Shown here in pieces: positions 9,142-48,843 of a DNA stretch of 64,000 nt. Source of the stretch: Schmidtea nova (lineage: Eukaryota); NCBI GenBank assembly GCA_044892505.1, contig CM097882.1:393142001-393206000 (forward strand). Reading direction: 5' to 3'. The notes under the pieces are model-generated. The model had not been told where the DNA came from. It searched no databases and saw only the letters and a program-made list of their open reading frames with translations. A program made the position numbers and the translations under genes. The number at the start of each line of letters is the position of its first letter. Within the stretch, counting starts at the first letter, position 1.

Positions 9142-10090
9142 TGTTCGGTTCGTATCAGTGGTTTACGACGAACACAGAAAATATATATATAATTGAAACT
9201 TTAATTTGATTATCGGACTCCAAACGATAATCCGCTTATATAATTATAGATAAAATATATGTTTTAGGTTGTGTGTAAAGAAAACAAAACTAATTCTTTT
9301 TAATAAGATTTATTGTGAAATATGTATAACAATGTACAATATAATAAAATAGCTGCAAAGCAAAAGTTAGAAAATCGGTTATTCAAACCGTCCTCAGAGT
9401 TTAAGAACGAAAGCTGGACCTAAAAGGCTCAACAGCTCCGACTAAATGAAAGGACAAGATGAGGGATTCCCGGTAGTTTAATCGCGATAGTGACAACCCA
9501 GAAATGGTTATCACTGTTGCCTAATAAATTTCCTTCTGATATTTAAAGATTTTACTGAAGGAGAAAGATAGTAATACAACTATTTCCCCGTGATCGATTA
9601 AATAAAATATAAACTAAATTTACCAAGACTATGGAGAATATTCTTTTGGTTCCACGAAATTTGCAACTGAACTACAATTTAATTTTAAAACTAAACTTCT
9701 CGTAATATTGTCTCTCAAATTCCCTACTGAAAGTCAATGATTTGTAATTAGTTTAAATAGTAAAGTACTGCCTACACGGCCACGCACAAAAAGTTTACTA
9801 TTATTTTTAGTAATTTTTATTTACTATTTTTAATCTAAATTTATTATTATTATTACTATAATTAGTGTATATCTATTTAGAGCAGTTATTAATTACTATA
9901 TTTATTTCTTTTCTATTTATAGTAATTATTTGTTACTAAAATTACTAATTAAGTATTTAATTATTACTATAATTATTATCTATCTATTTATAGTAATTCT
10001 TAATTGCTATTTATATTTATTTATTTATTTATAATATTTAATTACAAATTTATACAAAACCCCGAGATCCCTTGATCTCGAACCCTAACA
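9142..10090 (-). repeat. 3' LTR of element 1 (949 bp)
   Basis: TGTTCGGTTCG...CGAACCCTAACA. Near-identical to 22908-23747 apart from ~109 extra AT-rich bases. Confidence 0.97.
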
Positions 10091-10092
10091 TG

Positions 10093-10102
10093 TCTTCCCC
10101 CT
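10093..10102 (-). promoter_or_regulatory. Polypurine tract of element 1
   Basis: AGGGGGAAGA on the minus strand, 2 nt before the 3' LTR. Confidence 0.8.
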
Positions 10103-10389
10103 AACAAGATTTTCGTCCCGAAAATTAAAGCGGAAAAGACAAGAAGGTTAAGCAGCCAAAAATAAAAATAAAATAACAACACATGCATATATATACATAG
10201 AATGCGCTTGGCCAATAAAAAATGAGTCTCATAAAACACATAATACATAAGTAATGTTAATCACAATCGATATCAAATAATAACTGTCTGTAAGCGTTAG
10301 ATTGTTGATCGCATAGCCGAAATGCTAATTGTTTGATTGATAGTTGTCATAGCTTATAGCTAGACCTTGGATTGAACGTAGCAGAAATG

Positions 10390-12354
10390 CTAGTTATCCT
10401 TTGCGAATAGGTTTTGAGCTGCTCTCTTGCGAATATGCGCTTGCTCGTTCTTGATGCGATCTTCCACTATATCTGGTCTATAACTGACCACCAATGTTTC
10501 GCGTGTTTCGACTTCCTTATATACCAAAGACGAAATCACGTATGATATTCCGTTGGCCTCCAATACGCCATAGTAAGGGAAGTTTGAAACCGATGATTGG
10601 TGTACCGGTTTCCCGTCGTATTCTTTTATCCGAGGTACCCAATTTCTCTCTGGTCGCTGCCAAAAACTAGGGTCTTCATTGTCCAAATCCTGGGGTGTCT
10701 TTGCTGAATTTCCCGTTCCAACGAAATCCCCTTCTCTTATAATAATAGGTTCGCCCTTAACCTCAGGAATCTGTTCCATATCGGGTGGAACGAATGCTGT
10801 TTCGATTAAATCTTTGTCTTCCGTCGAGAGGAGATTTGGTACTTTCTTTTTGATCTTTAGATCTTGTAACCTTACAACAGGTTCTTGACTTTTCTTCGGG
10901 GATGACTTTTCCACTGAAGTCAACTTTTGAAAAGTCTTAGTAACTTTTTCCAAGAGCTTGTTCTCTTTCTTTGGTGGATTTTCTGGCACGATCTTTGTAA
11001 TTGTACGGCTGTCTCCGTGTAAAGTTAAACGCATCTCTGTTTGCTCCTCACCCTCGCTTTCGCAGGTGGCATAATCGTCTTCATCAGCTAATGATATAGC
11101 TGGAGGGGATAGTGATTCTTCCTCAACTATCTTTTGTAATTTGGTTGATAATGGTTGTTCCTGGGGTAAGCTCTCAATAGCTTTCCTTTTACTCGTTTCT
11201 TGTGGCTGTATTGTATGAACCATTTTGACTTCTGATGTAATCGTCCCACTACGATTACCTGGGGTGATGTCATCTACCCAAACTTCTCTCAGTTTGAGGT
11301 AAATATTACGTGTCGTTTCCACGTCATTTTCCGTTTTCAGATCTGAACGGTTTAGTTCTTCCTTTTCGAGAATTGACTTTGATAAATACGCGAGTCGATA
11401 ATGTCCGTTAGATTTCTTTAGTTCTCTCGCTTCCAGACATTTTGCTGCTCCTAGTTCTCTAATTCCCAAAACTCGTTGAGGGTGTAACTGAACTGCTTCC
11501 AAGAAATCATTGACTTGGAGACCTATTAGGATTTTCCCATCACATAATTTTCTAATACGGTCTGCGCAATCCTCTCCGTCAAATTGTCCGATAATTTCTT
11601 TTTCGGTCATACCATGCGCGTGCGATTGGTAATGTTTGACCTGGTTTCTGGGTGTAACCACCGTGTTTAATATTAAATCACCACAGTAGTTTGCTATCGA
11701 AACAGCCACCAAAGCTGGCTTTAAATAATCTCGCAAAGTTGCGTAATGCGCTGCAATAAATATTGACAATCTATCTTCTTGATTGGGGTGCAGATTCATC
11801 CGAACAAAGGATTTGAATGACTTGAGATCGTTCTCATTCACATTATAGGTCCAGGCAGGTTCGTTTTTCCACAATGATTGCACTGCCTTGCTGGGTTCCA
11901 AAATCTCTAATACCACAATAGTATTATATCCGTCACATTGGATGGAGATATTCTTTTCTCTGCCATCTCCGTTACTAATTTCTAGAGTTGATTCTGGTTG
12001 AAGTAGGATGGGTCCTGTGGCTCCTGCCATGAAGATTGTAAAGGGTTTATTGATCGCGTGAATCAGGAGATGGTGAGTAAATGTTGATCTGTTAAATTCC
12101 GCCATGTGTTCAGTCAACCGGGTGTTCTCACGGCTGGTGATTGTGACTATGCACATTTGTCTCTTAGGCGATCCGAGAAACTTAAAATTGTTCGGGATGC
12201 CGGTGCAGTGCCCGTAATACCAATAGCGACGACCTTTCCGTGCTTCTGCGGATATCGCTTTTTCGATGTTTCGATAAATCAGTTTTTCCTTCTGTACTGT
12301 TTGCACATCGATAGTGCTATAACGCTGCTTGTATTGTGACACTTGATGCTTCAT
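10390..12354 (-). CDS. ORF3 of element 1: N-terminal conserved domain, REX4/ISG20-like DEDDh exonuclease-fold domain (catalytic residues altered), low-complexity linker and conserved C-terminal domain
   Basis: VSIANYCGDLILNTVVTP...HYQSHAHGM...RKLCDGKILIGLQVNDFL...RELG...YRLAYLSKSIL matches the REX4/ISG20 pattern. Start placed at ATG 12354 because a conserved splice acceptor sits just upstream (the ORF track starts at 12426). Confidence 0.75.
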   Translation of the reverse strand: MKHQVSQYKQRYSTIDVQTVQKEKLIYRNIEKAISAEARKGRRYWYYGHCTGIPNNFKFLGSPKRQMCIVTITSRENTRLTEHMAEFNRSTFTHHLLIHAINKPFTIFMAGATGPILLQPESTLEISNGDGREKNISIQCDGYNTIVVLEILEPSKAVQSLWKNEPAWTYNVNENDLKSFKSFVRMNLHPNQEDRLSIFIAAHYATLRDYLKPALVAVSIANYCGDLILNTVVTPRNQVKHYQSHAHGMTEKEIIGQFDGEDCADRIRKLCDGKILIGLQVNDFLEAVQLHPQRVLGIRELGAAKCLEARELKKSNGHYRLAYLSKSILEKEELNRSDLKTENDVETTRNIYLKLREVWVDDITPGNRSGTITSEVKMVHTIQPQETSKRKAIESLPQEQPLSTKLQKIVEEESLSPPAISLADEDDYATCESEGEEQTEMRLTLHGDSRTITKIVPENPPKKENKLLEKVTKTFQKLTSVEKSSPKKSQEPVVRLQDLKIKKKVPNLLSTEDKDLIETAFVPPDMEQIPEVKGEPIIIREGDFVGTGNSAKTPQDLDNEDPSFWQRPERNWVPRIKEYDGKPVHQSSVSNFPYYGVLEANGISYVISSLVYKEVETRETLVVSYRPDIVEDRIKNEQAHIRKRAAQNLFAKDN

Positions 12355-12540
12355 ATCTGAAAGAAAAATAATTAACGTTAATATCAGATATACTGATATG
12401 CCAATATTGGCTAAAAAGAAATGCATAAATCTCGATTTACGGGATCTACTTATGCTGTAAGTTAATGCTACTCGGAGCTCAACAAGATTATAGATTTTAA
12501 TATATATATAAATACAAATATGTGATTTTATCTGTAATTG

Positions 12541-15500
12541 TCATAATCTCGTCATCATAATCCCATCAACCGACTCAATAGCCTGGCTGAAGAATAATTT
12601 CATCCAAACTCCCATTGCTATCAATGTAGTGATCATAGCTAATACTGCTGACGTAATAATCCATACCCCAACGGGTAATTTTCCCAAGTGAGTAATGGGG
12701 TTTACTTCATTAATTTCACACTGACAACTTTTAATATAGCTTTCTGTTGATACTGTTGGTTTTACCATTTTCAATCCTTTCAATCTCTGCCATATTGCAG
12801 GATGAATGACGTAACTCTCTTTCCGTATTAAGGATGTAACCGATTTCGTTGTCGTCGATGATTGAGGTAATTTCAAAGAGATTACTTCATAAAATACCTC
12901 ATTCCATTCATCGACTCCGGGCTTTTGTTTATTATTCATATAAGTGATATGAGCTTCCCACTCCACTGAACTGTTCCACTTAAGATTTTGTTTCTCAATA
13001 TCTTCATTTAGCCACAATTCTTGTACTATTTCCTTGTCGGAATGGATTTCTATCTTTACTCTATCCACTCCTTGTTTTGGTTGGCTGAAGGTAATCATAC
13101 CTTGTTGGATATTTATCTTAACTTTCCTTTTGAAATCTGCTGTCTTCAACTTCCATTGTGACTTTGAAAAATCTGACCATCGTCCAAACATAAAATGTTG
13201 TACAAGTATATCTAATAAATATTCCTTTTCTGCTCGTAAGTCCTTTATGACTTTCACTCTTGTGTTTGAATCCAATGTAAAATGGAAACAACGTCGTTCA
13301 CAAAACGAGAACTTGAATTTGGTATCATTTTCAGCTAATGATATTATCCTAAATTCCTGGAAAGATCTTCTGAATGCGAGATCTTGGATTTGTACCGCTG
13401 TTGGAACAAATGTCTTTACACAGGATATAAGGCAACTTATTATTACCAAAAACGTAACTGATTTTGGCACGCCTCTTGATCGTAATGGATATCTGTCTGA
13501 GACTGGTTCTGACCCTTTATCCTCCTTTTTCTTAATCGGATCTTTCTCCGTGACCGCAACTTTCTTGCATCTGTTAGCATGTACCATTATTGGTTCAGCT
13601 TTTCTATTTGCTACTAATTGCAAGATTAAATTCGTGTCTGTGGTTCTCAAAACCTCATATGGTCCTTTGAAGTTTCTCATTAATTTAGGTGATAAGCCCT
13701 TTTTATTATAATGGCTTTCCAACATCACCTTGTCTCCAACTAACATGCCATGTCCTTTGGCTTTCTTATCATGATAATCTTTCGACGCTTCCTGACTGAA
13801 TTTTATACTAAGACCTGCTTTTGTCCATGCTTCTTGCATTCTTTCTCTCATTTCCATGAGATAATCCTCTTGGTCTAAATACTGCGTTGCTTTTGGGAAA
13901 AACAACAAGTCTATAGGCATTTTACTTTGCCTTAAATACATGAGATAGAACGGCGTTTGTCCCGTACCCTCATGAACAGCATTTCTGTATGCGAATAGGC
14001 ATGATGGAATATGTATATCCCAATCCGTTTGCCCTGAATTTACGTATGATGCTAGCATATTTGCGAGCGTTCCGTTAAATCTCTCTACCAATCCGTCTGT
14101 TTGTGGATGGTATGGAGAGGTATTCAGTTTTAAAATGTCGAAATAATCATTTATTCCTTTTAACAGATTACTCATGAAATCTGCTCCTCTATCTGTAAGT
14201 AGTTTTGTAGGTACTCCATACCTAAAAACAATTTGCTCTACGAAAATCCTGGCTATCGTATCTGCCTTGTGATTCGGTATCGGATAAGCCTCCGGCCATT
14301 TCGTCAAGTAATCGCAAAATACCAATATGTATTTGTTACCACTATTTGATTCTTTGAATGGCCCTAAAACATCCATTGCCGTCATTTCCATCGGTGTGGA
14401 TGGTACTGGCATTGGTTTCATTGGCACATGCGGTTTCTTCCCCGTATTTCTCCTGGTGATACAGATCTTACATGTCTGACACCATTCCTGTACGTCTTGT
14501 TTGATTGTCGGCCAGAAATATTTCTGCTTCAACCTTGACAATGTTTTCCTGGAAGACAAATGCCCTCCCAGTGCTCCATCATGATATTGTAACATCAAGG
14601 CTTCCCGATATTTCTTAGGGACCATTATGACATTATCCCTTACGTCTACATATTTGACTAATCCTTCTTCTAGAATAAATTTGTCTCGATTTTTCTCCCA
14701 ATATTTATTAAATTCCGTCGGTATGAACTTTGCTTCTAAAGCCTGTCTGATTTGGTTTATCTCTTCATCCGATTGTTGTGCTGCCATTAAATCCGCGAGT
14801 CTATTTGCTTCTCTTGTAAGTGCGAAGATTGTTCCTTCTAATCTTCCTTCTTTGATATCTTCTGCTTCATCACCTTGGTCCATTCGCGAAAATGCATCTG
14901 CATTCCCATTTTGATGTCCTTTTCGGTAATGTATTTCGATGTCATATGGCTGCAAGATCAATGCCCATCTAACCAACTTTGATGTATCCATAGTATGCTT
15001 TGTTAACCACTGTAATGGTCTATGATCCGTATACACAATGATCTTTCGACCCCATAAATATGTCCTGAATTGGTGTATAGCATACACAATTGCTAATGCT
15101 TCTAATTCGATAACTGCATAATTCTTTTCATGTGGTTTTAATCCTCTGCTAGCATACGCTATGGCATATTCGTCTCCTAGGTCATCTCTTTGACCTAACA
15201 CAGCACCAATACCCCGAGTGCTGGCATCTGTCATGACCAAAAATTGTTTCTCAAAATCTGGAAACCGTAATATAGGAGGTTCCACGAGCATCCTCTTTAG
15301 CATATCAAATGCTTCCTGTTGCTCTTTTCCCCATACAAATTTGACATTTTTGCCCTCTAATTGTGTTAAAGGAAATGCTATTGCCGAAAAGTTCCTGATG
15401 AACTTCCTGTAATATCCCACTAAGCCCAAAAACCCTTTTATATGTTTAACAGTCTTTGGCTCTGGAAAATTCTTTGCTTTCTCAACATTTGCTGGATCTG

Positions 15501-18500
15501 GCTTTACTCCATCCTTCGAGATAATGTGACCGACATAGACTACTTCTGATTCGGCCCATTTACATTTTGATGGTTTTACCTTGAGATTTGCGTTTATCAA
15601 CCTTTTGAATACGTCCTCTAAATGTTCTAAATGCTTTTCCAAATCTGGAGAGAATACTATGATGTCATCTATGTATACCATTGCATGATGAACATCCATT
15701 AACATTAGATTCATTGCTCTTTGAAACGTTGCCGGCGCTCCTGTGAGACCAAATGGCATTACTGTATATTCGAAATGTCCCAGGCTTGTAGAAAAAGCCG
15801 TAATTGGTATTGTCTCCTCTTTTAACTTGATTTGGTAAAATCCCTTCTGAGCATCCATCACTGAAAAATATTTTGAATTTCTCATACGACCGTAGATGTA
15901 ATCCAGTAATGGTAAGGGGTGACTATCCTTGCAAGTGGCTTCGTTTACCATTCGATAGTCGTTGCATAGTCGTACTGTTCCATCCTTTTTAGCCACTACT
16001 ATCATTGGTGACTGGTATGGTGATTTACTATGCCTGATGATGTTATGTTTTAACATCAGTTTTACCTGCTTATCGACAGGTTCTTCCAAGCTAAACGGAA
16101 TTCGATACGGTCTCAGTTTTATTGGTTTCGTATTGTTAAGAACAATTTCATGTTCCAACAAATTCGTCTTTCCCAGATCATATTCGTGCTTGGCGAATAC
16201 TTGATCATATTTTCTTAATAACATGTTGACTTGGATATTCTCTCTTCGTGAAAGAGCTTTACTATTTGCCGTTGGCGCATCATAGTACTCGATGTCTGGT
16301 TCTCTATTCTCTGCCTTCACTGTCAGGACAGATCCCCCAATCGATAATTGATCCGACTTTGATACTCTCCCTACTCTTGTATCTGGATACAATTTTAATG
16401 GTTTTATATCTAAATTGGCTACCCGAATTGGTATTCTGCCATTTTCAACTTTACCAACGCTATGCGTAATTGATAGATTATATTTTGCTGAGAACCTTTC
16501 ATCTGGTTCGAATACAACTTCTCCTTCCCACTGTTCGCTAGTGGACACGAAACATACTGTTTCTGCTCTGGGTGGTATTATCATTGTATGATCGATGAAA
16601 ACTGTATCATCATTATAAACTTTTCTTTTCTTACCGATTGATCTAACTAACAATCCGGTAGCACAATCGAACACAACTCCTTTTAATCTTCTTAAAAGAT
16701 CCATTCCTAGTAGACATTCTACTGGACAAGTTCTCATGACTATAATATCATGACGAAATTCTTGGTCACATAGCTTGATGTTACAAGCTAGAGTACCAAT
16801 AATATTCAATGATGTGCCTCTAGCACCTGTTAGCGAAACTCTTGAGGTTTCCATTGATTCCAATTCTTTTAGATTTAATAGTGTTGCCTCTATGATAGTG
16901 CCGTCTGCTCCTGAATCTATCACTGCATTAACTGTGTGTCTGTTTATTTTTATCTTTATCATGGGTTTCTTATCCAAGTTCACCCCATTTGCCATCAAAA
17001 TAGTAGCATGCGTTATCCCGATGGTATTTGCTCTGAATTTCTCTGCTTCATCTTGTTCGGTATCACTCAATTTTGGATTATATTCCTTGAATTTAGCTTT
17101 TATTGCTTCTAACGACTCGATAGGATACAGTTTCCCTTCATTTTCTAACGATAGTGATATGCTTTTACCTGTTTCTCGAGCATCTTTATCGCGAATTTGT
17201 TGATGTTTAGAAGTGTAAATTTTGTTTCTTGGAATGGTTAAAGCATAATTTAGTTTGCCCTCTCCTGATGTCTTTTGAAACTCTGGCGATTCCCCCTTTG
17301 GCGCTGTTGGTAAGCTTCTAAGATACGGCAATTGCATATATCTTGGGCTTCTTTTCAATCTAGGCGATGTTGTATTGATTGCAAATTTCTGGTCTGCACT
17401 ATCGTCTTCATCTTCTGAAATCATACTTTTGTCGAAAATCTGTTTTGTCGCTTCGTAAGGTGGTTGATAATCCCGATATTTCATTTTCCTTAATTGATGA
17501 TTCGGTTTTTTATTGTAGTTTCTTTTTCGACTTCTACTTTGCCTCTGAACTGTATTAAGAGAGTCTCCATTACCTCCTCCTTCCGAATTGTTATCGTCCC
17601 GATAACTTGTATTACCCTCCATTTCGATTCCAATAATCTCGTGTTTTACCAAGCTTCTCTGTTTGATTGTCTTTATTTCTTTACGATGATGTTTAAACAA
17701 TGCAAATTCCGCACACATAGGACACAATCCTAGTATCAACTTCCAAGACCATCCACCGATTTTGAATATGCTGTATGTGGAAATTAATTGTGTTATTATT
17801 AACTTTAGAATTACGAATATTGCATATATTCCTGAGCAGCCTGCCACGAAAATACCAAAATTGGTAAACCTTCCCCATATTTTCATCATCACATTTTTAG
17901 CTGCTTCTTTATAATGATCTGGACCGAATAATAAATTGTAATCTGGTCTCATTTCGTTTGCTTGGTAAATTGTTCTTATGATTTCAGTGATACATCTTTC
18001 TCTTACTTGAGGGAATAGCAATGTCTGTCTTGCCTCCTCAATATCTGCTGGAGTGTAAATTCCTCCTTGTGATAATTCATCGAGTGATTTAAATTCCATG
18101 TTTTCCTCGAGTTTCGTGACTTCCAATGTTTCCACCTTTCTATTAGATGGTTTTCTGTCAGGTAATGAGATCCATCTATCATTTACCTTGTATAACGGTG
18201 ATATTGCTGGATTGCAAATTGAAGGTTGAGGCTTTTGTTTTTCATCCAAAAGTCTCCTCGTAACTGGCATTACAAATCGTATTTTGTTTTGATATGACAC
18301 TGGTAATTCTAGAGTACATTCATTATACCGAGTTAATTGTACCTCTATGGGTTGACATTGATAGCTGTATATAGCTTCCCCCATAATTCTGCCAAACATT
18401 CCATCTTCTAGCAACATAGGTGTCACTAGATCCGGATTCACGATTGATATCGCTAATCGATTTCGAACTATTTCGCGATTTAGTTTGCAATCATTGAGTA

Positions 18501-19044
18501 TTACTTCCTGATACATTTCCTGCATTTGTCCTTGCAGATCATGATATAAATAATCTATTTTATTATTTATATAGTTCGTGATTTTGATATCCTGGCTGTG
18601 AATATTCTTGGCTTTTTGGATAAATGTTTTTGACAAATATAATCCTTTATAGTTGGTCTCATACACCACTTTTCCGCATTTTGTCTTCTTATCTTTTCTG
18701 ACAAATCTGATTGCATCTTTCTTATCTTCTGATACTAATACTAGAGGTGTGATTTCTTCACTAATATCCTCTTTTTGCTGTTTGTTGATCCTTTTCAACG
18801 TCTTTTCTTTATCCCAAATTCTTTCTCTTTTGGGTAAATCTCGATACTTTGTCCCGTTCAACTTATGGAAATTAATTTTCTTTAGTAATGACAATTCGCA
18901 ATGGTCTAGTATTTGATCGTATAATAATGTAATGACCCCTGTTCTGCAGCTTCCAAATTTCGCAAGGCACTGAGGGTGTGCCATTAATCTTCCTGATAAT
19001 ACATCGAAAGTCCCTTCGTATTCTCTTAATTCGATTGAATAGTC
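12541..19044 (-). CDS. pol: Second part of element 1 polyprotein: C-terminal part of glycoprotein, aspartic protease, RT, RNase H, integrase, second type I membrane protein
   Basis: VIDSGA (~16910), PYRIP/CNDYR/YIDD RT motifs, TDAS...ELEALAI...TDHRPL RNase H, H-x6-H...C-x2-C and D,D(35)E integrase with GPY motif. In frame with the upstream ORF across TAG 19045-19047. Confidence 0.95.
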   Translation of the reverse strand, partial: DYSIELREYEGTFDVLSGRLMAHPQCLAKFGSCRTGVITLLYDQILDHCELSLLKKINFHKLNGTKYRDLPKRERIWDKEKTLKRINKQQKEDISEEITPLVLVSEDKKDAIRFVRKDKKTKCGKVVYETNYKGLYLSKTFIQKAKNIHSQDIKITNYINNKIDYLYHDLQGQMQEMYQEVILNDCKLNREIVRNRLAISIVNPDLVTPMLLEDGMFGRIMGEAIYSYQCQPIEVQLTRYNECTLELPVSYQNKIRFVMPVTRRLLDEKQKPQPSICNPAISPLYKVNDRWISLPDRKPSNRKVETLEVTKLEENMEFKSLDELSQGGIYTPADIEEARQTLLFPQVRERCITEIIRTIYQANEMRPDYNLLFGPDHYKEAAKNVMMKIWGRFTNFGIFVAGCSGIYAIFVILKLIITQLISTYSIFKIGGWSWKLILGLCPMCAEFALFKHHRKEIKTIKQRSLVKHEIIGIEMEGNTSYRDDNNSEGGGNGDSLNTVQRQSRSRKRNYNKKPNHQLRKMKYRDYQPPYEATKQIFDKSMISEDEDDSADQKFAINTTSPRLKRSPRYMQLPYLRSLPTAPKGESPEFQKTSGEGKLNYALTIPRNKIYTSKHQQIRDKDARETGKSISLSLENEGKLYPIESLEAIKAKFKEYNPKLSDTEQDEAEKFRANTIGITHATILMANGVNLDKKPMIKIKINRHTVNAVIDSGADGTIIEATLLNLKELESMETSRVSLTGARGTSLNIIGTLACNIKLCDQEFRHDIIVMRTCPVECLLGMDLLRRLKGVVFDCATGLLVRSIGKKRKVYNDDTVFIDHTMIIPPRAETVCFVSTSEQWEGEVVFEPDERFSAKYNLSITHSVGKVENGRIPIRVANLDIKPLKLYPDTRVGRVSKSDQLSIGGSVLTVKAENREPDIEYYDAPTANSKALSRRENIQVNMLLRKYDQVFAKHEYDLGKTNLLEHEIVLNNTKPIKLRPYRIPFSLEEPVDKQVKLMLKHNIIRHSKSPYQSPMIVVAKKDGTVRLCNDYRMVNEATCKDSHPLPLLDYIYGRMRNSKYFSVMDAQKGFYQIKLKEETIPITAFSTSLGHFEYTVMPFGLTGAPATFQRAMNLMLMDVHHAMVYIDDIIVFSPDLEKHLEHLEDVFKRLINANLKVKPSKCKWAESEVVYVGHIISKDGVKPDPANVEKAKNFPEPKTVKHIKGFLGLVGYYRKFIRNFSAIAFPLTQLEGKNVKFVWGKEQQEAFDMLKRMLVEPPILRFPDFEKQFLVMTDASTRGIGAVLGQRDDLGDEYAIAYASRGLKPHEKNYAVIELEALAIVYAIHQFRTYLWGRKIIVYTDHRPLQWLTKHTMDTSKLVRWALILQPYDIEIHYRKGHQNGNADAFSRMDQGDEAEDIKEGRLEGTIFALTREANRLADLMAAQQSDEEINQIRQALEAKFIPTEFNKYWEKNRDKFILEEGLVKYVDVRDNVIMVPKKYREALMLQYHDGALGGHLSSRKTLSRLKQKYFWPTIKQDVQEWCQTCKICITRRNTGKKPHVPMKPMPVPSTPMEMTAMDVLGPFKESNSGNKYILVFCDYLTKWPEAYPIPNHKADTIARIFVEQIVFRYGVPTKLLTDRGADFMSNLLKGINDYFDILKLNTSPYHPQTDGLVERFNGTLANMLASYVNSGQTDWDIHIPSCLFAYRNAVHEGTGQTPFYLMYLRQSKMPIDLLFFPKATQYLDQEDYLMEMRERMQEAWTKAGLSIKFSQEASKDYHDKKAKGHGMLVGDKVMLESHYNKKGLSPKLMRNFKGPYEVLRTTDTNLILQLVANRKAEPIMVHANRCKKVAVTEKDPIKKKEDKGSEPVSDRYPLRSRGVPKSVTFLVIISCLISCVKTFVPTAVQIQDLAFRRSFQEFRIISLAENDTKFKFSFCERRCFHFTLDSNTRVKVIKDLRAEKEYLLDILVQHFMFGRWSDFSKSQWKLKTADFKRKVKINIQQGMITFSQPKQGVDRVKIEIHSDKEIVQELWLNEDIEKQNLKWNSSVEWEAHITYMNNKQKPGVDEWNEVFYEVISLKLPQSSTTTKSVTSLIRKESYVIHPAIWQRLKGLKMVKPTVSTESYIKSCQCEINEVNPITHLGKLPVGVWIITSAVLAMITTLIAMGVWMKLFFSQAIESVDGIMMTRL

Positions 19045-22000
19045 CTAGATATCTACTACAAAACTTACCAACTCCGATCCGCGAGTTTTCTTTCTTCCCG
19101 TACAGGTACCATCTGATCCAATTGATCCTCCTCTTGTAATGGTTACTCCCAGTGTTTTCCCTACTTCCGCGGCGATGGTTACCTCGTTATCGATTCTTAA
19201 AGTACCTTTTCGAAAGGCATCCAGACAATCCTCTGGCAATATGTTGACAGGTCTAGGTATTAGAGTGGCTGATAGAAAAGCCGTGTAGCTGTGTGAACCA
19301 CAATAATATTCAAATGTCGCTCTTTGGACTCTACATTCTCTTATCTTAGTTCTGAAGAATTCACTTTCTTGATAGACATAGTATTCGACCTTTTCTCCTG
19401 TTTGGACTTTCTCTGGATATGCCTCTTTGCACTCAATTGCATCTACGAGCGAATATATCCGAGCTAACTTTGGATCACTGCAATCAAACGCTGTCATTGT
19501 GTTTGTCTGTTTCATTATCCCCATCATTACTAAAAACATTAATATCATATTCGTCATATTCCCCATTCCTCCATTTCCGAGGTGGTTGTTATTCATAGCC
19601 TCTTCCACAAATTCATATCGTGGTTTATGTTTCTCCTCTTCCCAGAAGTTATTTTCACTCATCCACGTTCCGAGATAATGCTCCGTTATCTCCGTGATCT
19701 GGTCTATTTCTCGATTAATAAGTTTCTTCTCATTGCCTGCGCGGGCTAAGGCGTCTTGAATCAACATAGATAATGCTGTCACTATTTTTCCTTTAGATAA
19801 CCCATCTTGTATGAGTGTCTCTAACATATTCTGTATCTCGTTTTGAGGTACCCCTTTAGGTAATCTCCTCATCGTCTTCGCGATTGTCTGTGTCACTTTA
19901 TCCACTTGAATTCCTTTAATCCGAGTGATCTGCCATTCCGGCTTTAATATTCCTATGATCTGTTTTAATCTCTTCCATGTCAGAGATTTTTCTGGTATAT
20001 GTACTCCCTCGTCTCTCATATCAACATCCCTGGCTATTCCTGACAGGGTTTTCATCTGAACCTGTTTAATGGTTTCTTGGTTTAATTGCTCCGTTGGGGG
20101 AGGTTTCATTTGATCTTTCCTAGGCCTTCCTCGCCTATCTTTCTTTGTCTGCCATGCTGGCCTGACATTTTCTACCGCCTGAGAAGTTGAAGCTCCCACG
20201 TTAGTTTCCTCATTATTGAGTCTGATTTTCTCTTCTCCGTGATTATCGGCATCGATATCTACATTAAGTGGTTGTGTCTCAACGTTACCAATGACCATTT
20301 CATCTGGTAACCGTAATGCTGACCATTGAGATTCAGGTGGCTCTACGGGAATGATTGCTACCGTTGTAGTTTCAAATGGTAGACATCCCACATCTACTAA
20401 ATATTCATCATCATCCACTTGCCCTCCATGAATCATAATCAAGAATATACCGGTAGTCTGCCCAGTATCTATTAAATCTTTTCTCAACGTTATCACTTTG
20501 CTAAAACAACGATATAATCTCGTCATGGGTTCTTTTCCCAATATTCGAATGTCTAAAGTTATCATGCCTTGTCGGTGTGCTTGATGACGTATTGCTGTTC
20601 CATTTTTCCTCATTAACATTTTTATTTCTGTTTGAAAAGAACTAGTTTCTTTTACTACAGGTAGTAATATAGGAATTATACTCTCCAATGATTCTACTGG
20701 TATGCGCAATACCAACATCCAGTCTAATATTTCCTTGATTGTTTCTCCATCCCTCGGAGATTTCTGCAACTCTATCTTCAGACGTTGCTCTATTTGTTGG
20801 ACTTCCTCCAACTGTGCAATTTCCATTTGTGTGAGTAGAAACACACTGTCTTGATCCACTACTGGGACCGATATTCCTGTCAGTTTTGTTGTGAGTTTCG
20901 TTACCCTTCCTGGTAATACACCATTTTGTAGTAGTGTTTCCCCAACTACTAACTTTTCTCCATATAGATAAAAATCATATCTATTATGTTTCAATTTCGT
21001 CATTGTATCTGACAACTTATCTGTTCGACATCTTACATTCATGTCGATGTTAAACTCCTGCTCCTGAGGAAGTTTTATGTTTAAATGCGAATCCTGAAGA
21101 TCCCATTCATGTTCCATTGCTGTCCCTATCTTTCGTAGGATTCTATGTATGTCGCTATGATACCTTGGATCATCTTCGACCTGAGATATTAACTGTAATA
21201 TCTTTCCAATTTCGCTATTCTTGATATCACCTTGTGATAATTTCTCTAATTCTCTAGTCAGTCTCTGCTGATACTCATATCTGGAATCCACCAGTTTTAA
21301 ACATTTTGCTAGGGTATCTGACCCTTTCTTGGCCTTTGTTTCCTTGAACAAAGCCTGGTCGAACTCGCTCAGTATGGTACTCATACTGAGTTCGTCATCA
21401 TTATCAGAATTTGTTTCTGATTCTATTACCTCATGATTCTCGCTGCTGGAATCCATGGGTTCACTATTTCCTTGCTCATCTGTGTAAGCATCATGATTTT
21501 TCTCAGCTGAAATCATCAAAACTGTTCCTTGCCCAACTGTGTGAGCATCATCGCTTTCCTCAATGGGATTCATTATAACTGTTCCTCGCCCATCCATGTG
21601 AGCATGATTTTTCTCAGCTGAAATCATAAAAACTGTCTCTTGCCCAACTGTGTGAGTCTCATTTATTTCTTCAATTGTATTCATCAAAACTGTTCCTCGC
21701 TCATCTGTGTGAGCATGATTTTTCTCAGCTGAAATCATAAAAACTGTATCATCTCGAACCATTAGCCGTGCTAATCGATTTTTCTCCTCCTGGATTTCCA
21801 TTTCCAGTTGTTGCAAATACGTCAATTCTTTATCGTGATTGACCATGAACGTAGTTTTTGGCTTGCTGACATTACCACTATTGGTAGTCCTACTATTCGT
21901 ATGATTACTCTGATTTTGAGGACACGACCTCAGGATATGCCCGAATTTTCCACACCCGTGGCATTTTATCTTTCCTGATGAATTTACATCATCCCTTTTT

Positions 22001-22806
22001 ATATTAAAATTCCCATTCGTTGGGAGATTCCTAACTCTACAAACGGAAGCAACATGCCCTCTGCGTTTGCATTTATCACACTGCAAGTTCGTGACTCTAC
22101 AGTTCTCAACACTATGATTATTCATACCACATTTAGTACACTGAATACCCCTACGAGTATCAGCTACCTTCTTACTGTGGCAATCTTTTGATATATGCCC
22201 CTTCTTATGGCAGTTAAAACATTCAATTGCTGGCTTCTCATTATTTACCATAAATGAGGTAGCCTTTTCTAAGCTGCTTTCGATTACGACAGCTTTTCTT
22301 GTTAATTCCCAAAAATCATCTCCCGTGTGGAGAATCAATGCATTTCTCATAACATTTGTGAATCCAGCTAATAATTGGTCTTTAACCATAGCTTTAGTTG
22401 CATCATTCCAGGTAGTTCTGAGCCCAAATGCTCTTTCTGCTAATAACAATAATTGGTAGGAAAATTCTCCTACATGTTCATTTGCATTCTGCTTCCTGTG
22501 ATAAAACTGTTGTCGGAAAATTCTACTTGAATCTCCCGGTAATATTCTAGCTGTTAGTGATTCTCTCATCTTTTCCCATGTAGCTGGTTTATCTGCTGCT
22601 GGTAACGCCATAATATCATTGTAGTTTTCCCTTGCCATACCCTTAAGGTAAATTGGCAATCTTTGTATCATTATCGCATCTGGATACCCATAGGCCTTTG
22701 CCATCTGATAATACTCTGACATAAACTCCGGAAATTCCCCTGGATCTCCGCTAAATGCCTTGACAGGTAAAGCGGGATATCTAGCAAAAACATTTTCCTC
22801 CACCAT
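19045..22806 (-). CDS. gag: First part of element 1 polyprotein: Gag with four CCHC knuckles, accessory domains, signal/TM segment and N-terminal part of glycoprotein
   Basis: Retrotransposon Gag core (FSGDPGEF...YLKGMA...RKQNANEHVGEF), four CX2CX4HX4C knuckles, then MILMFLVMMGIM followed by AFDCS...CGSHS. Confidence 0.9.
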   Translation of the reverse strand: MVEENVFARYPALPVKAFSGDPGEFPEFMSEYYQMAKAYGYPDAIMIQRLPIYLKGMARENYNDIMALPAADKPATWEKMRESLTARILPGDSSRIFRQQFYHRKQNANEHVGEFSYQLLLLAERAFGLRTTWNDATKAMVKDQLLAGFTNVMRNALILHTGDDFWELTRKAVVIESSLEKATSFMVNNEKPAIECFNCHKKGHISKDCHSKKVADTRRGIQCTKCGMNNHSVENCRVTNLQCDKCKRRGHVASVCRVRNLPTNGNFNIKRDDVNSSGKIKCHGCGKFGHILRSCPQNQSNHTNSRTTNSGNVSKPKTTFMVNHDKELTYLQQLEMEIQEEKNRLARLMVRDDTVFMISAEKNHAHTDERGTVLMNTIEEINETHTVGQETVFMISAEKNHAHMDGRGTVIMNPIEESDDAHTVGQGTVLMISAEKNHDAYTDEQGNSEPMDSSSENHEVIESETNSDNDDELSMSTILSEFDQALFKETKAKKGSDTLAKCLKLVDSRYEYQQRLTRELEKLSQGDIKNSEIGKILQLISQVEDDPRYHSDIHRILRKIGTAMEHEWDLQDSHLNIKLPQEQEFNIDMNVRCRTDKLSDTMTKLKHNRYDFYLYGEKLVVGETLLQNGVLPGRVTKLTTKLTGISVPVVDQDSVFLLTQMEIAQLEEVQQIEQRLKIELQKSPRDGETIKEILDWMLVLRIPVESLESIIPILLPVVKETSSFQTEIKMLMRKNGTAIRHQAHRQGMITLDIRILGKEPMTRLYRCFSKVITLRKDLIDTGQTTGIFLIMIHGGQVDDDEYLVDVGCLPFETTTVAIIPVEPPESQWSALRLPDEMVIGNVETQPLNVDIDADNHGEEKIRLNNEETNVGASTSQAVENVRPAWQTKKDRRGRPRKDQMKPPPTEQLNQETIKQVQMKTLSGIARDVDMRDEGVHIPEKSLTWKRLKQIIGILKPEWQITRIKGIQVDKVTQTIAKTMRRLPKGVPQNEIQNMLETLIQDGLSKGKIVTALSMLIQDALARAGNEKKLINREIDQITEITEHYLGTWMSENNFWEEEKHKPRYEFVEEAMNNNHLGNGGMGNMTNMILMFLVMMGIMKQTNTMTAFDCSDPKLARIYSLVDAIECKEAYPEKVQTGEKVEYYVYQESEFFRTKIRECRVQRATFEYYCGSHSYTAFLSATLIPRPVNILPEDCLDAFRKGTLRIDNEVTIAAEVGKTLGVTITRGGSIGSDGTCTGRKKTRGSELVSFVVDI

Positions 22807-22886: not shown

Positions 22887-22904
22887 ATCACGTCGGGCTC
22901 ACCA
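22887..22904 (-). promoter_or_regulatory. Primer-binding site, tRNA-Trp type
   Basis: TGGTGAGCCCGACGTGAT, 3 nt after the 5' LTR. It is complementary to the AUCACGUCGGG(G/C)UCACCA 3' end typical of eukaryotic tRNA-Trp. Confidence 0.85.
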
Positions 22905-22907
22905 AAA

Positions 22908-23747
22908 TGTTCGGTTCGTATCAGTGGTTTACGACGAACACAGAAAATATATATATAATTGAAACTTTAATTTGATTATCGGACTCCAAACGATAATCCG
23001 CTTATATAATTATAGATAAAATATATGTTTTAGGTTGTGTGTAAAGAAAACAAAACTAATTCTTTTTAATAAGATTTATTGTGAAATATGTATAACAATG
23101 TACAATATAATAAAATAGCTGCAAAGCAAAAGTTAGAAAATCGGTTATTCAAACCGTCCTCAGAGTTTAAGAACGAAAGCTGGACCTAAAAGGCTCAACA
23201 GCTCCGACTAAATGAAAGGACAAGATGAGGGATTCCCGGTAGTTTAATCGCGATAGTGACAACCCAGAAATGGTTATCACTGTTGCCTAATAAATTTCCT
23301 TCTGATATTTAAAGATTTTACTGAAGGAGAAAGATAGTAATACAACTATTTCCCCGTGATCGATTAAATAAAATATAAACTAAATTTACCAAGACTATGG
23401 AGAATATTCTTTTGGTTCCACGAAATTTGCAACTGAACTACAATTTAATTTTAAAACTAAACTTCTCGTAATATTGTCTCTCAAATTCCCTACTGAAAGT
23501 CAATGATTTGTAATTAGTTTAAATAGTAAAGTACTGCCTACACGGCCACGCACAAAAAGTTTACTATTATTTTTAGTCATTCTTATTTACTATTTTTAAT
23601 CTAAATTTAGTATTTAATTATTACTATAATTATTATCTATCTATTTATAGTAATTCTTAATTGCTATTTATATTTATTTATTTATTTATAATATTTAATT
23701 ACAAATTTATACAAAACCCCGAGATCCCTTGATCTCGAACCCTAACA
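22908..23747 (-). repeat. 5' LTR of element 1 (840 bp)
   Basis: Matches 9142-10090 and is flanked by the PBS and the TSD. Confidence 0.97.
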
Positions 23748-27900: not shown

Positions 27901-30900
27901 GGTTCTTATGATAGGGATAACTACAACCCACGCCCCATCATAAAAGGTTAAGTACCTCACTCGTGTAACTATTGTTACACGTTTGTTTTCTATGTTGGTA
28001 ATGTACACGGTTGTGAAAATCTAGTGAGCAGTTGAGCTTCGTTGTCAAAACTACTTATCCTTATATTAACTCTATCGGATTCCTGCTACTGATAGAAGGA
28101 CTTACGCACATATATATTCTACGGTCATTTCGCATTATCATTTTTCTAGCTTTATATTACTTTATCTTATATCAGATCGACGCTTGTTTATCCCCCAAAA
28201 TATAAAAATTACCTCCTACCTATATTCTTCAGACCACTTTAACCTACTCTTAAATGACTTTAAATTTAGTCATTTAATTATTATATATCATGACTTTATG
28301 TTAGGCAAAATTAAATTGAACAGAGCATGCAAACTAAAATTCCTACTTCAAGCATGCGACGCAGGATTTCCCTCCCCTCTCTTTAAGATAGTAAATTTGA
28401 TAAATTATATTCTACTCGTTTTTCATAGAAATGTGTCACTGCGCCCCCTAACTCTGAGGGTCACGACGGTTATGGCTTTCGCCTCTCGGCTTTCACCACA
28501 AAGGCTGCAATCATATGAATTTTGTGTGGGAAAACATATATGAGGGTTTACCCAATTTTTAAAATAACAAAGAAAAAAAACACCTTTATTTCTCAATTAT
28601 TTTTAAAGTATACAACAAAATCAATAGACTCTTGAACAGTCTTGCATATCGTTCAGGTACAATAAACTGATGTTTTCTAGTAGAATTCCTCCGTTTAATG
28701 TTTGAACAAGTTAAAAAAAATTGACTATCCACAAAATTATGGTTAAAGTTATGATTTTCCAGCGTCTATTTATACTAATTCTAAATGACACCTGCGTAAT
28801 TTGTTCGTTAAATAAGAATACTAATAATTAAATTTATATATCTATTTTAATATTTAACTCATTTATTTCAATAAATGATTATTTATTTATTCTCCATAAT
28901 TTTAATTTTATAATTTATTTTCTAAATATTTATTTTTAGTTCCATTAAATGGCATGTGTCCATTTTTTGCGCACGTTAATTGATTAATTAAAATAATCAA
29001 ATTTATTTTAATTTAATTTTCTTCCTATCTCTGTTATTTTTACGATATTTTAATTGAGATTTCTTCTATAATTTTAATACATTGTTCTCTCGTTTTTGAT
29101 ACCCATTTTATTCTTTGATCATGATTTTTCGTATTTACTATACAAGCAATGATCTGTTCCATTCAATTCTCGTGTGGTCATTTGTATGTAAATTCGACCT
29201 GCACTCAAATTGTGGACTCTCTTCTGAGATGCCTCTTTTCTATCGTTTTCTCCTTAACTCGACCGACTTATGGTATGCGGTTTGTTTGACTATTATTTGC
29301 GCTTTAATATTCTATAGACTTTGGTGCTGTTTTTGTGCATAATGCTTTTATGTATTATCATGCGTTTAAATTCGTTTTTTTCGTACCTTTAATTTTCAAT
29401 GCGTTTAAACAAAGTTTCTTCTCGATTCTACTAGTATAACAATTTTAAAGGTGTTAAGTTGAGAAGGAGTAAAAGAAAAGTAGAATAAAATTAAACGGTT
29501 TCATCAGTATCAATTGTAATTGTTTGTTTATTCGACAAATAAATATTTGGAAAGTAATAATGAATAAAGATAAAGTAGATATATAGTGATGAAGCCAGGA
29601 TAAAGAGTAGCATAATCTCCTATAGGTGGTACCTGAACCCAATAAAATGCCTGGACATTAGTAGTCACGAAGACGCAGTCTACCTTTTACAGGCTTATTC
29701 AACCACTTTGTACAATACCGACGTTACCAAGCGGACGGGGTCAGTATTTTCATGATGGAGTATTGTTGGTTTATCGCAGAGAATTAGTTCATTTGTTTTA
29801 AGTCGATTTTTTATTTGATTTCTAGCGCTCCTATAATTGAAAATCACCAAAATCAAACACAATGAATTTTATTGAATTCCACAAATTACAAACGATAAAT
29901 CAATACAATTTATATTTTTTGCAAAACGCTCAGCACTTCTTTATTCAAACGATAGGGGTAGGTCTACCAAGATAGATTGCCCTTTCTGGTACGTTTCACG
30001 CTTTTTATTTGCTAATGTTAGGTTTCACACTCTCTTCGTTTTACTAACCAAATGTGTTTTTCTTTTTTTCTTTTATTGCTCCGGACAAGAATTACGGTTC
30101 GACCAAACTGGCACTGGATGTTGTAATGCGTCTCTTTTATAGTCTTCTCTTAATAACAATATAATTGAATTTTACCACAAATTTCCATTAATTATTTTTA
30201 GTTGTTGTAATTTAATTGTTCTGATGGAAAACAAAGCTAAATTTAATTAACCTAAGCAATAATTTTTTTAGACCTGCCACAATTAAATTTAGCATCCCAT
30301 TACTCTGGGTTTCCCATGCGTTCGGGTTTCCATTGTTTCAGGCTTCCCCCATAACTAATAAATTATTCATTAATTTTTAATTAATTTCTATTTATTAAAT
30401 CTCTTTATCTAGGTAACCCCATTCGTTATGTTCAACGGGAAATGGGTTAAAGATAACACAAGCAATTTTGTGAGAGAGTTAAATTAGTTATTAATCGATT
30501 TATTTATTTATTGATCTAACTCCAAATTATTCAATTATCTTTATATATAAATATTATTAGTCATATTATTAAATCAGATTACTTTCTCTCTTTTTAAAAC
30601 TTTTATTTAGAACTATTGTACAAATTTACTAAAGAAATAAAAGACCATGATCGATTGATCAATCCCTCACTTATCAGCAAGCAACACGATGCATTTTAAT
30701 GGTAGGACATCGTTGATTAAAAATAAATTCAGAGGATAAGAAGTTTTAATATTGGGGCTACCCAGGTACACTAAAGCGGTCAATTACGGAAATTACACAA
30801 TAGATTTTTCAAACTAGTTTCGATGAACTAAAATCTATCTAAGTTGAATATGCCTTTATAATAAGTTTCGTATTCGGTTGCTTTCACAAAACCCTGATTG

Positions 30901-31880
30901 ATTTATATGTCAATGACTGATAAAATATTTTACTTTCCATACAAATTTGTTTCTAAATGTCATTTATCCGATAAAATATTTCTATCGTGCTAACTCGTTT
31001 GTAAAGGTCAAAATTGATTTTCTGGTTTAATTAAACCTCAGGATCTTTCAATCCTTTTATATTTCTTTTTTCCTCGCAAATTTAATATATATTCTTGGTA
31101 ATTGCCAATCTATTATTAGCAACAAAAATTACTAAAAATAGACATTTTAAATTTATTTAAATTATTACCTAATGTTAACGTTGAGGCCTAAGGGCCTATC
31201 CGTAACATATCTCCCCCAGAAGATTTTCGTCTCGAAAATAAAGACATTATAACACTATAACAATAAAATAATAAAAATTATACATAAAGATCACAATATA
31301 TAAATAATAGTTCACATATAATTGTTTTAGTAATGATCAAAATGTCTTTAGCAGGATTTGCTTCTGATTTTCTCTGGCGATTTTAGCGCGTCTGGCTACT
31401 TCATTGGGTCGGTAAATGACTACCAAAGGCTCTCTATTGAAGGCACTAACTCAGATGTTAGTTGCCAAGATTTGAGGTACCCCACTCACATCAGGAACTC
31501 GATGATGAGGGTAATTTGTGATTTCCATATAAGAAACTGGTTTTCCATAAAATCTTTCACCTAAAGGTATCCATTGTCTGTCTGTCCGTTACCACTACAT
31601 AGAGCAGTCTTCGTCTAAGTCAATGGACACGTAGTTACGAATGATGTTGTCGTTTGGATCGTTAATTCTTTTTTATGTCACTGTCTTCAATAATGTGTGT
31701 TGGCGGCTGGAAACTAAGTTCTTCCAATTCTTCCGTGGGTGTCGAAGGTTTCACTTTTGGGACTGTAACATCAACTTTGCTGGTTGTGCTTTGTTTGGGT
31801 GTTTTGTGAAGCTTAAGCTTCTCTTTATCTCTTTTCTTGGCCTTGGCTGGAATCATCTTTATCAGGATCTTTTTAACTGT

Positions 31881-32567
31881 TTATTTTGTTGCTGCTGGTT
31901 TTTTTATCTTTTTAGTTTTGCTCGCGCATGTTTTGTATGTGTTTTCTTCCTTTTTTAAGGAGATTGGAGGTGGTAGTATAAGATCGTCAATAATTTCTGT
32001 CTCCTTGGGCTTAGATAATTTAGGTATGCTAGATTCTGGATGAGTTTCTTCTTTCATTTTTGAGGATTTTAAAACAATGCTTCTGTTTGATACCTCTGAC
32101 GACTGTTTTTGTTGGCTGGTTCCTGGTGTGGTTTTTGCATGGTTCGCCTCCATTGCTAATTGGATGACATTTGTTCTTGATATACGTAAATGCATTTGTT
32201 TGCCCCGCAGAAAACCGGCATCAAGATTTCGAATTGCCGTCATAGCTTGTGGGTGAATTGCAAACAGCACCAAAGCCGTATTCTTTTTGTTAAACGTAAT
32301 TGTAACATTTGCGTTAACCATCATGATATTGTTTGCTTTGATCTGTTCGTCTTTATTTCGACCGTGCGTCATTAGAGAGCATATTAATCGCCCAACAATT
32401 GGACATTGTGCTTTTCTAAATCGTTCTGTTCTATAACGACCAGCAGACTGGGGAATTATTTTTGCATATTTTCCACTATAATTAGTGTAATCTGTTAATG
32501 ATAGATCGGTAGCGTGAACATCATCAGTGCTCCATTTAATGAAAAGTTTAAAGTCAGATATATTCAT
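31881..32567 (-). pseudogene. Chimeric ORF: 40S ribosomal protein S5 (uS7) N-terminal fragment, PTB/hnRNP-L-type RRM fragment, and ORF3 linker of element 2
   Basis: KLF.KWSTDDV..DLSL.DY....KYAK..P.SAGRY...[19 protein letters not shown] is RPS5. [10 protein letters not shown]......AM.AI..L....L.GK...L..S....IQL resembles PTB RRM3. Confidence 0.8.
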
Positions 32568-38500: not shown

Positions 38501-38794
38501 CATTATCATTATTAATATTATTATTATTGAATCGAGCCAAACCCACTTTTAATGCATTTTTATTTTCATCAGTAAACAATTCCTCTGTCATAATGTCAAA
38601 GATATCACTGTTTAACCTGAAATCATCAAAAGAAGCATTGGATTGTTGACGTACGTCAGATGTTTGAATTCTCGATATTAAAATTGAATTTGAATCACAA
38701 TTAACTTTTTTAAATTGAAAAGTAGGATTGATATCACTTGGGAATATAATATTATTTTCACAATCTATAGAAATACACTCTTTCGTTTCCAAAG

Positions 38795-39322
38795 CAGAGG
38801 CGGACTGGCTACTTATTCTCAGGGTTGCTGATGTACCTCAGGGGCCCGTAATTGCATGCAGGGTCACGAATTCTTTCTAAACAAATTTTACCTCTATGTT
38901 AAATTTACGTGAAAAATGACAAAGAAACGAAAGAGTCCTTTAAATAGCGTTATTTTTATGAAATTTTATAATAATAAATTTAATATCACAGTTGAACTTA
39001 CTTCAAAATGATCCGTTAATGAAATAAAATTGCATGCACAATGCAGAAATGATAATTCACGAGAATTCTCTGATAGCGCGGTTAAGTTATACTAACAAAC
39101 TTAGCAATTAAAACAAATATATAAAAAATGTTCGTAAATCAGCCTGATTATTATAATTCTATACTTGCATTGTTGATTTAAATAAATTTTTTTCATAAAG
39201 TACAAATCAATAGGTATTAACTAAAATATATATTTTTATTCTACATTGGGCCCGGATCCCTAACATTTGGAAAGGGCCCGGGTTGCTAACGCAACCCGGC
39301 AACCCGGGTCAGTCCGCCACTG
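38795..39322. mobile_element. Non-autonomous hAT element (528 bp)
   Basis: TIRs CAGAGGCGGACTG / CAGTCCGCCACTG with perfect 8-bp TSD TTCCAAAG. Confidence 0.93.
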
Positions 39323-45329: not shown

Positions 45330-45840
45330 AAACATAACACAACAAATTTTATTTATTCAAATCTGATAATTCACGACGACTAAATCAATACAACTTTTCA
45401 AGTTTCTGCACACACCTTTTACACTCTTTTTTAAGCAATATACTAGATTGCCCTTTCTGATACGCTTGATTGGCTTATGTTTTCTTTACAGCAATGTCCT
45501 ATTCACTTACCCACTCTTTTAAATACTGTTAATTTTCTGTTTATCTTGCCACTTTTATAGTTTACCAATTTGTCAACAGATTGGTTAAGTTTTCCAAACT
45601 TGTTGTCAAATTCGATTATGACTTTCCGTAATTGGAATTTTGCTAAATAGAATTTGTTCTAATTTGATTTATTTGATCCGCGCTTTTGGTAGTTCGATTT
45701 CCTCTCGGGTTTCTCTTTGCCATGATCTCACATGCACTCGGGCTTCCCCATTGACTCAGTTTTTCTACATGACTAATAAATTATTCATAAATTTTTAATT
45801 AATTTCTATTTCCTGAATATCTTTTTCTGGGGACCCCCAC
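45330..45840 (+). repeat. Unclassified dispersed repeat with CTCGGGTT(T/C)CC subrepeats; other copies at ~29930-30420 and ~44490-44600
   Basis: Shared blocks TAGATTGCCCTTTCTG.TACG and CTAATAAATTATTCAT.AATTTTTAATTAATTTCTATT, plus the tandem GGGTT(T)CC motifs. Confidence 0.6.
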
Positions 45841-48800: not shown

Positions 48801-48843
48801 ATATTAATAATTAACAACAAATGACAATCCAAATATATATTTT

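Follow-up and report, generated by a model that had tools for sequence, protein, structure and literature searches.

The window analysed here, a 64,000-nucleotide stretch of the Schmidtea nova genome (assembly GCA_044892505.1, contig CM097882.1, positions 393,142,001 to 393,206,000), carries on its minus strand a 14.6 kb Ty3/gypsy element (23747-9142). This element is probably an autonomous, recently expanded errantivirus of the flatworm GAG-ENV-POL (Burro-related) type, of which the window copy is disabled by one stop codon in env, and whose polyprotein would cross the membrane four times. The gag-env-pol layout itself is already published, and the window element adds a young, high-copy family to it, while two of its parts, a post-integrase FN3-like membrane protein and a second open reading frame (ORF2) encoding cupin-like and ISG20-like domains, appear to be undescribed.

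Structure and classification of the element

The first open reading frame (ORF1) starts with an ATG at 22806 and ends with a TGA at 12541-12543 of the minus strand, comprising 3421 codons including one internal TAG. It encodes, in this order, Gag, two ubiquitin-like repeats, a Bcl-2-like domain, a signal, a glycoprotein (Env), protease, reverse transcriptase, RNase H, integrase (PR-RT-RH-IN) and a membrane protein. Pfam searches and translation thus confirmed the order Gag, glycoprotein, PR-RT-RH-IN on the minus strand that had been read from the DNA letters in the original prediction. The parts of the element, with expectation values (E) of the matches, are:

22908..23747, minus strand: 5' long terminal repeat (LTR), TG...CA, 840 bp, 97.4% identical to the 3' LTR over 795 bp
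22887..22904, minus strand: primer-binding site for tRNA-Trp, whose complement agrees with genomic tRNA-Trp(CCA) genes at their 3' end
21916..22806, minus strand: Gag, capsid-like region and four CCHC knuckles (zf-CCHC, E 1.7e-7)
21435..21713, minus strand: 111-nt tandem repeat within the Gag linker (sequence repeat)
20368..21090 (bounds approximate), minus strand: two ubiquitin-like repeats (profile matches)
19621..20064 (bounds approximate), minus strand: Bcl-2-like domain (profile against Bcl-xL, E 1e-4)
19489..19557, minus strand: internal signal of Env (hydropathy), in the same place as expected for a Bcl-2 tail anchor
17854..19488, minus strand: Env ectodomain of the chuvirus/gB type (PF24664), interrupted by TAG at 19045-19047
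17794..17853, minus strand: transmembrane (TM) helix of Env (aa 1652-1671; hydropathy)
16678..16974, minus strand: aspartic protease (DSGA; RVP, E 5e-11)
14944..15993, minus strand: reverse transcriptase (YIDD; RVT_1, E 3e-33) and RNase H (RT_RNaseH, E 3e-37)
13567..14622, minus strand: integrase (H2C2, rve core, GPY motif)
12544..13461, minus strand: post-integrase type I membrane protein (predicted) in frame with ORF1, with signal, two FN3-like domains, TM helix and C-terminus T-R-L
12355..12543, minus strand: ORF1 stop (TGA CAA TTA) and AT-rich spacer, the 3' end of which is the splice-acceptor-like TTTTTCTTTCAG just upstream of the ORF2 ATG
10390..12354, minus strand: ORF2, 654 aa, with cupin-like domain, ISG20-like DEDDh fold and disordered tail
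9142..10104, minus strand: polypurine tract and 3' LTR (3' LTR 10090-9142, 949 bp)

A target-site duplication, TTAT, flanks the element on both sides. Together with the LTRs, primer site, polypurine tract and PR-RT-RH-IN order, this is the make-up of Ty3/gypsy (Metaviridae) elements; the Pfam RT_RNaseH and H2C2 matches and the GPY motif likewise fit gypsy, the RT tree itself containing no named references. The primer site for tRNA-Trp was identical in six of seven other copies inspected and differed by one base in the remaining copy, and all four element families described below share tRNA-Trp as their primer. ARAGORN identified nine tRNAs in a tandem array carrying the primer motif, and no tRNA at three dispersed loci matching it. 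The array of tRNA-Trp(CCA) genes has a period of ~282 bp and lies near 128.02-128.07 Mb of G000:C3 (locus L070), and the primer motif has ~2000 exact matches genome-wide.

An in-frame glycoprotein of the gB type

The hydrophobic core of the Env signal comprises aa 1086-1098 (19551-19513) and is followed by FDC at 19488; a hydrophobic run followed by A/G-[FY]DC was present in all four families and in nine public homologues. The coordinates first proposed for the signal, ectodomain and TM helix of the glycoprotein agree with hydropathy, and a second hydrophobic stretch lies downstream of the TM helix (aa 1690-1704). The Pfam family Monjiviricetes_fusion (PF24664) matched on either side of the TAG with E 2.4e-19 and 3.9e-69, bearing out the earlier assignment to the chuvirus/gB type. 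A match to BDV_G was weak (E 3e-4, below cut-off), and a sequence search of solved structures in the PDB gave no match for Env.

The original prediction had described a single frame and a complete glycoprotein, which does not hold for the window copy, as codon 1254 of ORF1 is an in-frame TAG that splits the frame into 1280 and 2167 codons, counted from stop to stop. The site was open in all 19 other copies fetched, so that among the copies examined the stop is private to the window copy, and an alternative genetic code as explanation of the TAG was rejected for this reason.

Copies, families and selection

A C-terminal piece of env, used as genome query, gave at least 95 matches, 78 of them full length at >=97% identity. 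For 26 of the 95, the match itself was free of stops and the open frame around it reached 3400 codons or more. The genome thus holds multiple near-identical intact copies, as described for GAG-ENV-POL errantiviruses. Seventeen copies, fetched as 34 separate stretches, form four families with frames of ~3448 (the window family), 3546, 3401 and 3393 codons, hereafter named by these lengths. The gag-env-pol order is common to all four, and their RTs are 55-76% identical to the window RT. LTR pairs in sister-family copies were 99.6-100% alike in nine of ten cases and 90.8% in one.

Between the 3401 and 3393 families, env is 85% identical, and the ectodomain of ~545 aa, cysteines included, is conserved over its whole length. 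With a nonsynonymous divergence (dN) of 0.084, a synonymous divergence (dS) of 2.3 and a resulting omega of 0.04, and with similar values for RT and IN, the sequences indicate that env is under strong purifying selection. The RT and Env trees (10 and 9 rows, no named references) agree in grouping the window family with 3546 and 3401 with 3393. A chance insertion of env was accordingly rejected on the basis of the shared order in four families, the purifying selection and the congruent trees, and the placement of env is a family trait, as had been anticipated.

A search of 1.84 billion representatives returned 1147 relatives at E <=0.001. Twelve long public homologues were scanned, and in nine of them a single chain carried env and then protease or RT, the other three containing env only. 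One of these relatives, an Env-PR-RT-RH-IN polyprotein deposited as a hypothetical protein from a Flavobacteriaceae metagenome-assembled genome (HBK71150.1, here P0006), is probably animal DNA in a bacterial bin. Three others (P0002, P0005 and P0011) have two or three protease-like domains after Env. An exonuclease-like N-terminus suspected in P0018 was unsupported on checking.

Gag and the linker preceding Env

A Retrotrans_gag match on Gag was below cut-off (E 0.027). The first ubiquitin-like repeat matched ubiquitin when a four-family profile was used (E 7e-4 to 2e-3), and the second matched weakly, with the UHRF1 ubiquitin-like domain at E 0.03. The Bcl-2-like domain ends ~20 residues upstream of the Env signal, and a Pfam Bcl-2 match was also obtained in a sister family, below cut-off (E 6e-4). 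PDB and Pfam searches, which are less sensitive than HHpred, gave no match for a dUTPase-like segment between PR and RT, and by the same limited sensitivity Pfam gave none for MATH, BIR or ankyrin domains in ORF1.

A second membrane protein after integrase

The second signal, ectodomain and TM helix claimed downstream of integrase were recovered by hydropathy, the signal at aa 3116-3134 and the TM helix at aa 3379-3400 (12672-12607), with a luminal part of ~245 residues between them in the predicted topology. Pfam found no match on this protein. An AlphaFold2 model built from a four-sequence alignment (mean pLDDT 55) resembled fibronectin FN3 pairs in Foldseek (E 3e-6), and a VIA structure comparison with FN3 gave Z 9.7 with a root-mean-square deviation (rmsd) of 6.5 over 164 aligned residues. 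An Atlas search pointed to FN3 membrane proteins at 0.91, with recognition below the Atlas threshold. The model thus provides moderate evidence that the protein carries tandem FN3 domains, spanning ~13392-12862 on the minus strand.

The post-integrase proteins of the other families are only 17-29% identical to that of the window, and the protein appears constrained (omega ~0.15, a rough value since dS was saturated in many comparisons). The C-terminus reads T-x-[VL] in each of the four families (TRL, TEV, TFV and TFV), which we interpret as a PDZ ligand of class I. A signal-like and a TM-like stretch after integrase were also present in all three long public homologues reaching past integrase (P0005, P0006 and P0018), with a PDZ-like end in P0006 only. 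Homology was undetected between the window protein and that of P0006, the one tested, the two sharing topology only.

Just upstream of the post-integrase signal lies the motif RYPLR (13494-13471, minus strand), found in five of seven sequences reaching past integrase. It presumably resembles the motifs by which foamy-virus Gag and LANA bind the nucleosome acidic patch and, by that analogy, could tether integrase to chromatin.

ORF2, a module of cupin-like and ISG20-like domains

The ORF2 ATG (12354) lies two bases past the acceptor-like AG (12358-12357), and an acceptor-like AG shortly upstream of an ATG was observed at all 15 ORF2 junctions inspected, with varying spacer length and frame. In four sequencing runs made up of contigs whose loose ends resemble tagmentation adapters, none of the joints listed (14 more lay outside the listing) led onto the ORF2 acceptor, an outcome that has no bearing on splicing. 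For ORF2 as a whole we found no homologue in a large protein collection and no Pfam match, and its N-terminal domain had no Atlas match. This domain (~12324-11890) is tentatively assigned as cupin-like, as its model resembles a cupin/double-stranded beta-helix (cupin/AlkB-like, VIA Z 9-10). The N-terminal part of ORF2 appears constrained at an omega of ~0.13, which is rough owing to saturated dS in many comparisons.

An ISG20-like DEDDh exonuclease fold follows at ~11796-11266 on the minus strand. ORF2 matched ISG20L2 by sequence (E 1e-5) and by profile (E 8e-8), and the structure of the exonuclease part was recognised by Foldseek (E 3e-8) and compared with ISG20 by VIA at Z 15.7 and rmsd 2.9 over 154 residues. 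The catalytic residues D-E-E-D and His (D-A-E, E, H...D) are kept in the 3401 and 3393 families (L042, L048) and lost in the window and 3546 families, the window family being without the ExoI D/E and the ExoIII His. Judged by these residues, two families have a catalytically intact exonuclease and two a degenerate one.

The ORF2 module may also be exchangeable. Copies L036 and L038 are near-identical in integrase and the post-integrase protein (proportion of synonymous differences, pS, 0.11-0.14) and saturated in ORF2 (pS 0.73-0.90), and because of this the sequences point to exchange of ORF2 by recombination. The divergence between these copies switches near a purine run directly after the ORF1 stop. 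In the 3401 and 3393 families the spacer before ORF2 (L042:3190-3590, L046:3036-3451) contains ATTGG, a G-run with TATATA, a GGTAA donor-like site and an acceptor, and may possibly be an internal promoter with a short intron.

Proposed mechanism and alternatives

We propose that the genomic RNA is translated into one polyprotein that would cross the membrane of the endoplasmic reticulum (ER) four times. The hydrophobic run after the Bcl-2-like domain would start translocation, whereupon signal peptidase would release the N-terminus of Env and leave the Gag-ubiquitin-like-Bcl-2 part tethered by the signal helix. The Env TM helix would bring the chain back to the cytosol, so that PR-RT-RH-IN would be attached to the tail of Env, and not to Gag, up to its release by the viral protease. 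From the second signal, after integrase, an FN3 membrane protein would arise as a separate product, and its free C-terminus could bind PDZ scaffolds for attachment or the choice of budding site. ORF2 would have a message of its own, either spliced or started internally, and would act as an RNA-binding or RNA-trimming accessory factor, and Env would allow passage of particles between cells, as in Drosophila errantiviruses. The alternating signal and TM hydropathy along ORF1 fits such a topology. The earlier proposal of a polyprotein threading the ER membrane thus agrees with the observed pattern; the threading itself, the four crossings, the signal-peptidase cuts, the separate FN3 protein and the ORF2 message are what we infer from it.

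Several points weigh against this reading. The topology was derived from Kyte-Doolittle hydropathy rather than a trained predictor, the Env signal is only moderately hydrophobic, and the Env ectodomain lacks an R-x-[KR]-R furin site. The FN3 model is of low to moderate confidence given its pLDDT and four sequences, and with dS saturated in most comparisons the omega values are rough. A single frame also implies a 1:1:1 ratio of Gag, Env and Pol; unless adjusted by splicing or degradation, such a ratio would be unusual in enveloped particles. Finally, the reading is built on sequence, hydropathy and models, from which expression, processing, particles and fusion are predictions only.

The stoichiometry would be normal if spliced messages, either env-skipping Gag-Pol or Gag-only, supplied most of the proteins and the full frame were a minor product. 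Errantivirus env is normally expressed from spliced mRNA, and the element has an acceptor-like site ahead of ORF2. However, four diverged families all keep the whole frame of ~3400 codons open, neither a stop nor a frameshift following gag, and we consider a predominantly spliced supply unlikely.

In the window family, ORF2 could instead be joined to ORF1 by readthrough of the stop codon, adding a TM-like stretch and the pseudo-nuclease to the polyprotein. The stop context TGA CAA TTA resembles what we take to be the CAR-YYA leaky-stop signal, the spacer encodes a hydrophobic run, and 50 of the first 77 ORF2 matches begin right at the stop, in a 716-codon frame. The 62-codon spacer is moreover open in frame, as it is in 0.6% of shuffles. 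In contrast, the other three families have neither the leaky context nor an open spacer, copy L027 of the window family has a 4-nt shift, the hydrophobic run of the spacer coincides with the T-rich acceptor tract, and the conserved ORF1 C-terminus T-x-[VL] requires a free end. Readthrough is hence quite improbable.

It is very unlikely that Env has lost its cell-to-cell role and is a membrane anchor or topology switch co-locating Gag and Pol for intracellular assembly. Pol would need the Env TM helix to regain the cytosol, as hydropathy suggests, and env may be constrained partly for structural reasons. Yet conservation of the entire cysteine-bearing ectodomain goes far beyond the need of an anchor, and the window also contains the insertion of a gypsy element that lacks env.

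The four-crossing polyprotein could be taken further. Such elements might be endogenous viruses with two glycoproteins, derived from a single four-pass polyprotein. They would have a gB-type fusogen whose cytoplasmic tail carries Pol, a Gag anchored by Bcl-2, a receptor-like FN3 protein with a PDZ ligand that serves attachment or routes budding to cell junctions, and an exchangeable cupin and ISG20-like (pseudo)nuclease module countering host RNA defence. We regard this combination as speculative and on balance doubtful; if true, its division of labour would be nearer to that of herpesviruses or flaviviruses than to that of known retrotransposons.

Other features of the window

A decayed relative of the element occupies a second part of the window:

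30423..46700, minus strand: element 2, with gag, linker, env and PR, then ORF2

The gag (46486-46018), env (36710-34922) and protease (34377-34123) of element 2 support the earlier claim that it has the same order as far as these three parts are concerned; the element is frameshifted and split by a nested gypsy element, and no RT, RH, IN or post-integrase match was found between PR and ORF2. The nested element is env-less, lies at 40359-44316 on the plus strand and has 145-bp LTRs that are 95% alike.

Elsewhere in the window, a Penelope-like fragment with RT and GIY-YIG endonuclease lies at 54819-55979 (plus strand), and a frame at 5929-7701 (minus strand), amid AAT-rich repeats, encodes a ubiquitin C-terminal hydrolase (UCH) domain (E 7e-23). 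A 266-bp inverted repeat at 48807-49801, 97% complementary and with arms 463 bp apart, resembles a miniature inverted-repeat transposable element.

Comparison with known systems

The original prediction regarded the layout as undescribed. This claim fails because the layout is already catalogued (PMC6431247; PMC13524379), an outcome named in advance as speaking against it, and an in-frame env lying between gag and pol was published as early as 2019. The fuller parts list now available leads to testable questions in a tractable animal group, namely how packaging of Pol works with Env lying between it and Gag, what role the second FN3/PDZ membrane protein has, and what keeps purifying selection acting on an ISG20-like nuclease that is apparently active in some families and dead in others.

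Chary and Hayashi (PMC13524379) catalogue GAG-ENV-POL elements with gB-type env in Nematoda, Bryozoa and Platyhelminthes, among them six Schmidtea mediterranea elements whose copy numbers reach 215, and cite nematode non-canonical endogenous retroviruses in which env and pol are flipped (Sacco et al., 2022). The flatworm elements have the same order, gB-type env and multiple copies as the window element, and their listed spans are 14.5-18 kb with flanks. By eye, the window Env is identical to that of Smed_errantivirus_4 at ~67 of the first 100 aligned residues, and an AlphaFold model is given for the relative Smed_errantivirus_3. No tRNA type is given there for the Smed elements, whereas the window element has a primer site for tRNA-Trp. 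The words fibronectin, exonuclease, Bcl, polyprotein and fused do not occur in the main text of that paper, nor the first three in seven text supplements, and its figures and GitHub files may differ. For such elements we found no description of the FN3 protein or the ISG20-like ORF2 in the literature searched; further figures, the supplement of Grohme (2018) and Repbase entries may mention them.

Planarian Burro elements have env in frame between gag and protease (PMC6431247). As described for Burro/GYPSM1 (Arkhipova and Yushenova, 2019), they likewise combine, in a single polyprotein, Gag with knuckles, a ubiquitin-like domain, BCL2 and env before protease, and Burro env matches mononegavirus-type fusion proteins in that account, which cites Jurka (2007) and Grohme (2018). 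BURRO1 RNA has been reported in differentiated cells after smedwi-2 RNA interference (PMC8532177). Burro is, however, larger, with >30 kb and an ORF1 of 4873 aa against 14.6 kb and 3421 codons, and carries MATH, BIR, ankyrin and Smc motifs, none of which Pfam found in the window element, and a dUTPase-like segment for which the window element gave no match at the sensitivity stated above, while the section devoted to it describes neither an FN3 membrane protein nor an exonuclease ORF.

An accessory 3'-5' exonuclease ORF after pol is likewise found in the bdelloid rotifer elements Vesta and Juno (Rodriguez, 2017, PMC5408684), in which DEDD is changed to DEED, as in the sister families of the window element with intact catalytic residues. 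According to the text covering these elements, their ORF3 is DEDDy/RNase D-like and takes the place of env, whereas the ORF2 described here is DEDDh/ISG20-like, fused to a cupin-like domain and present alongside env.

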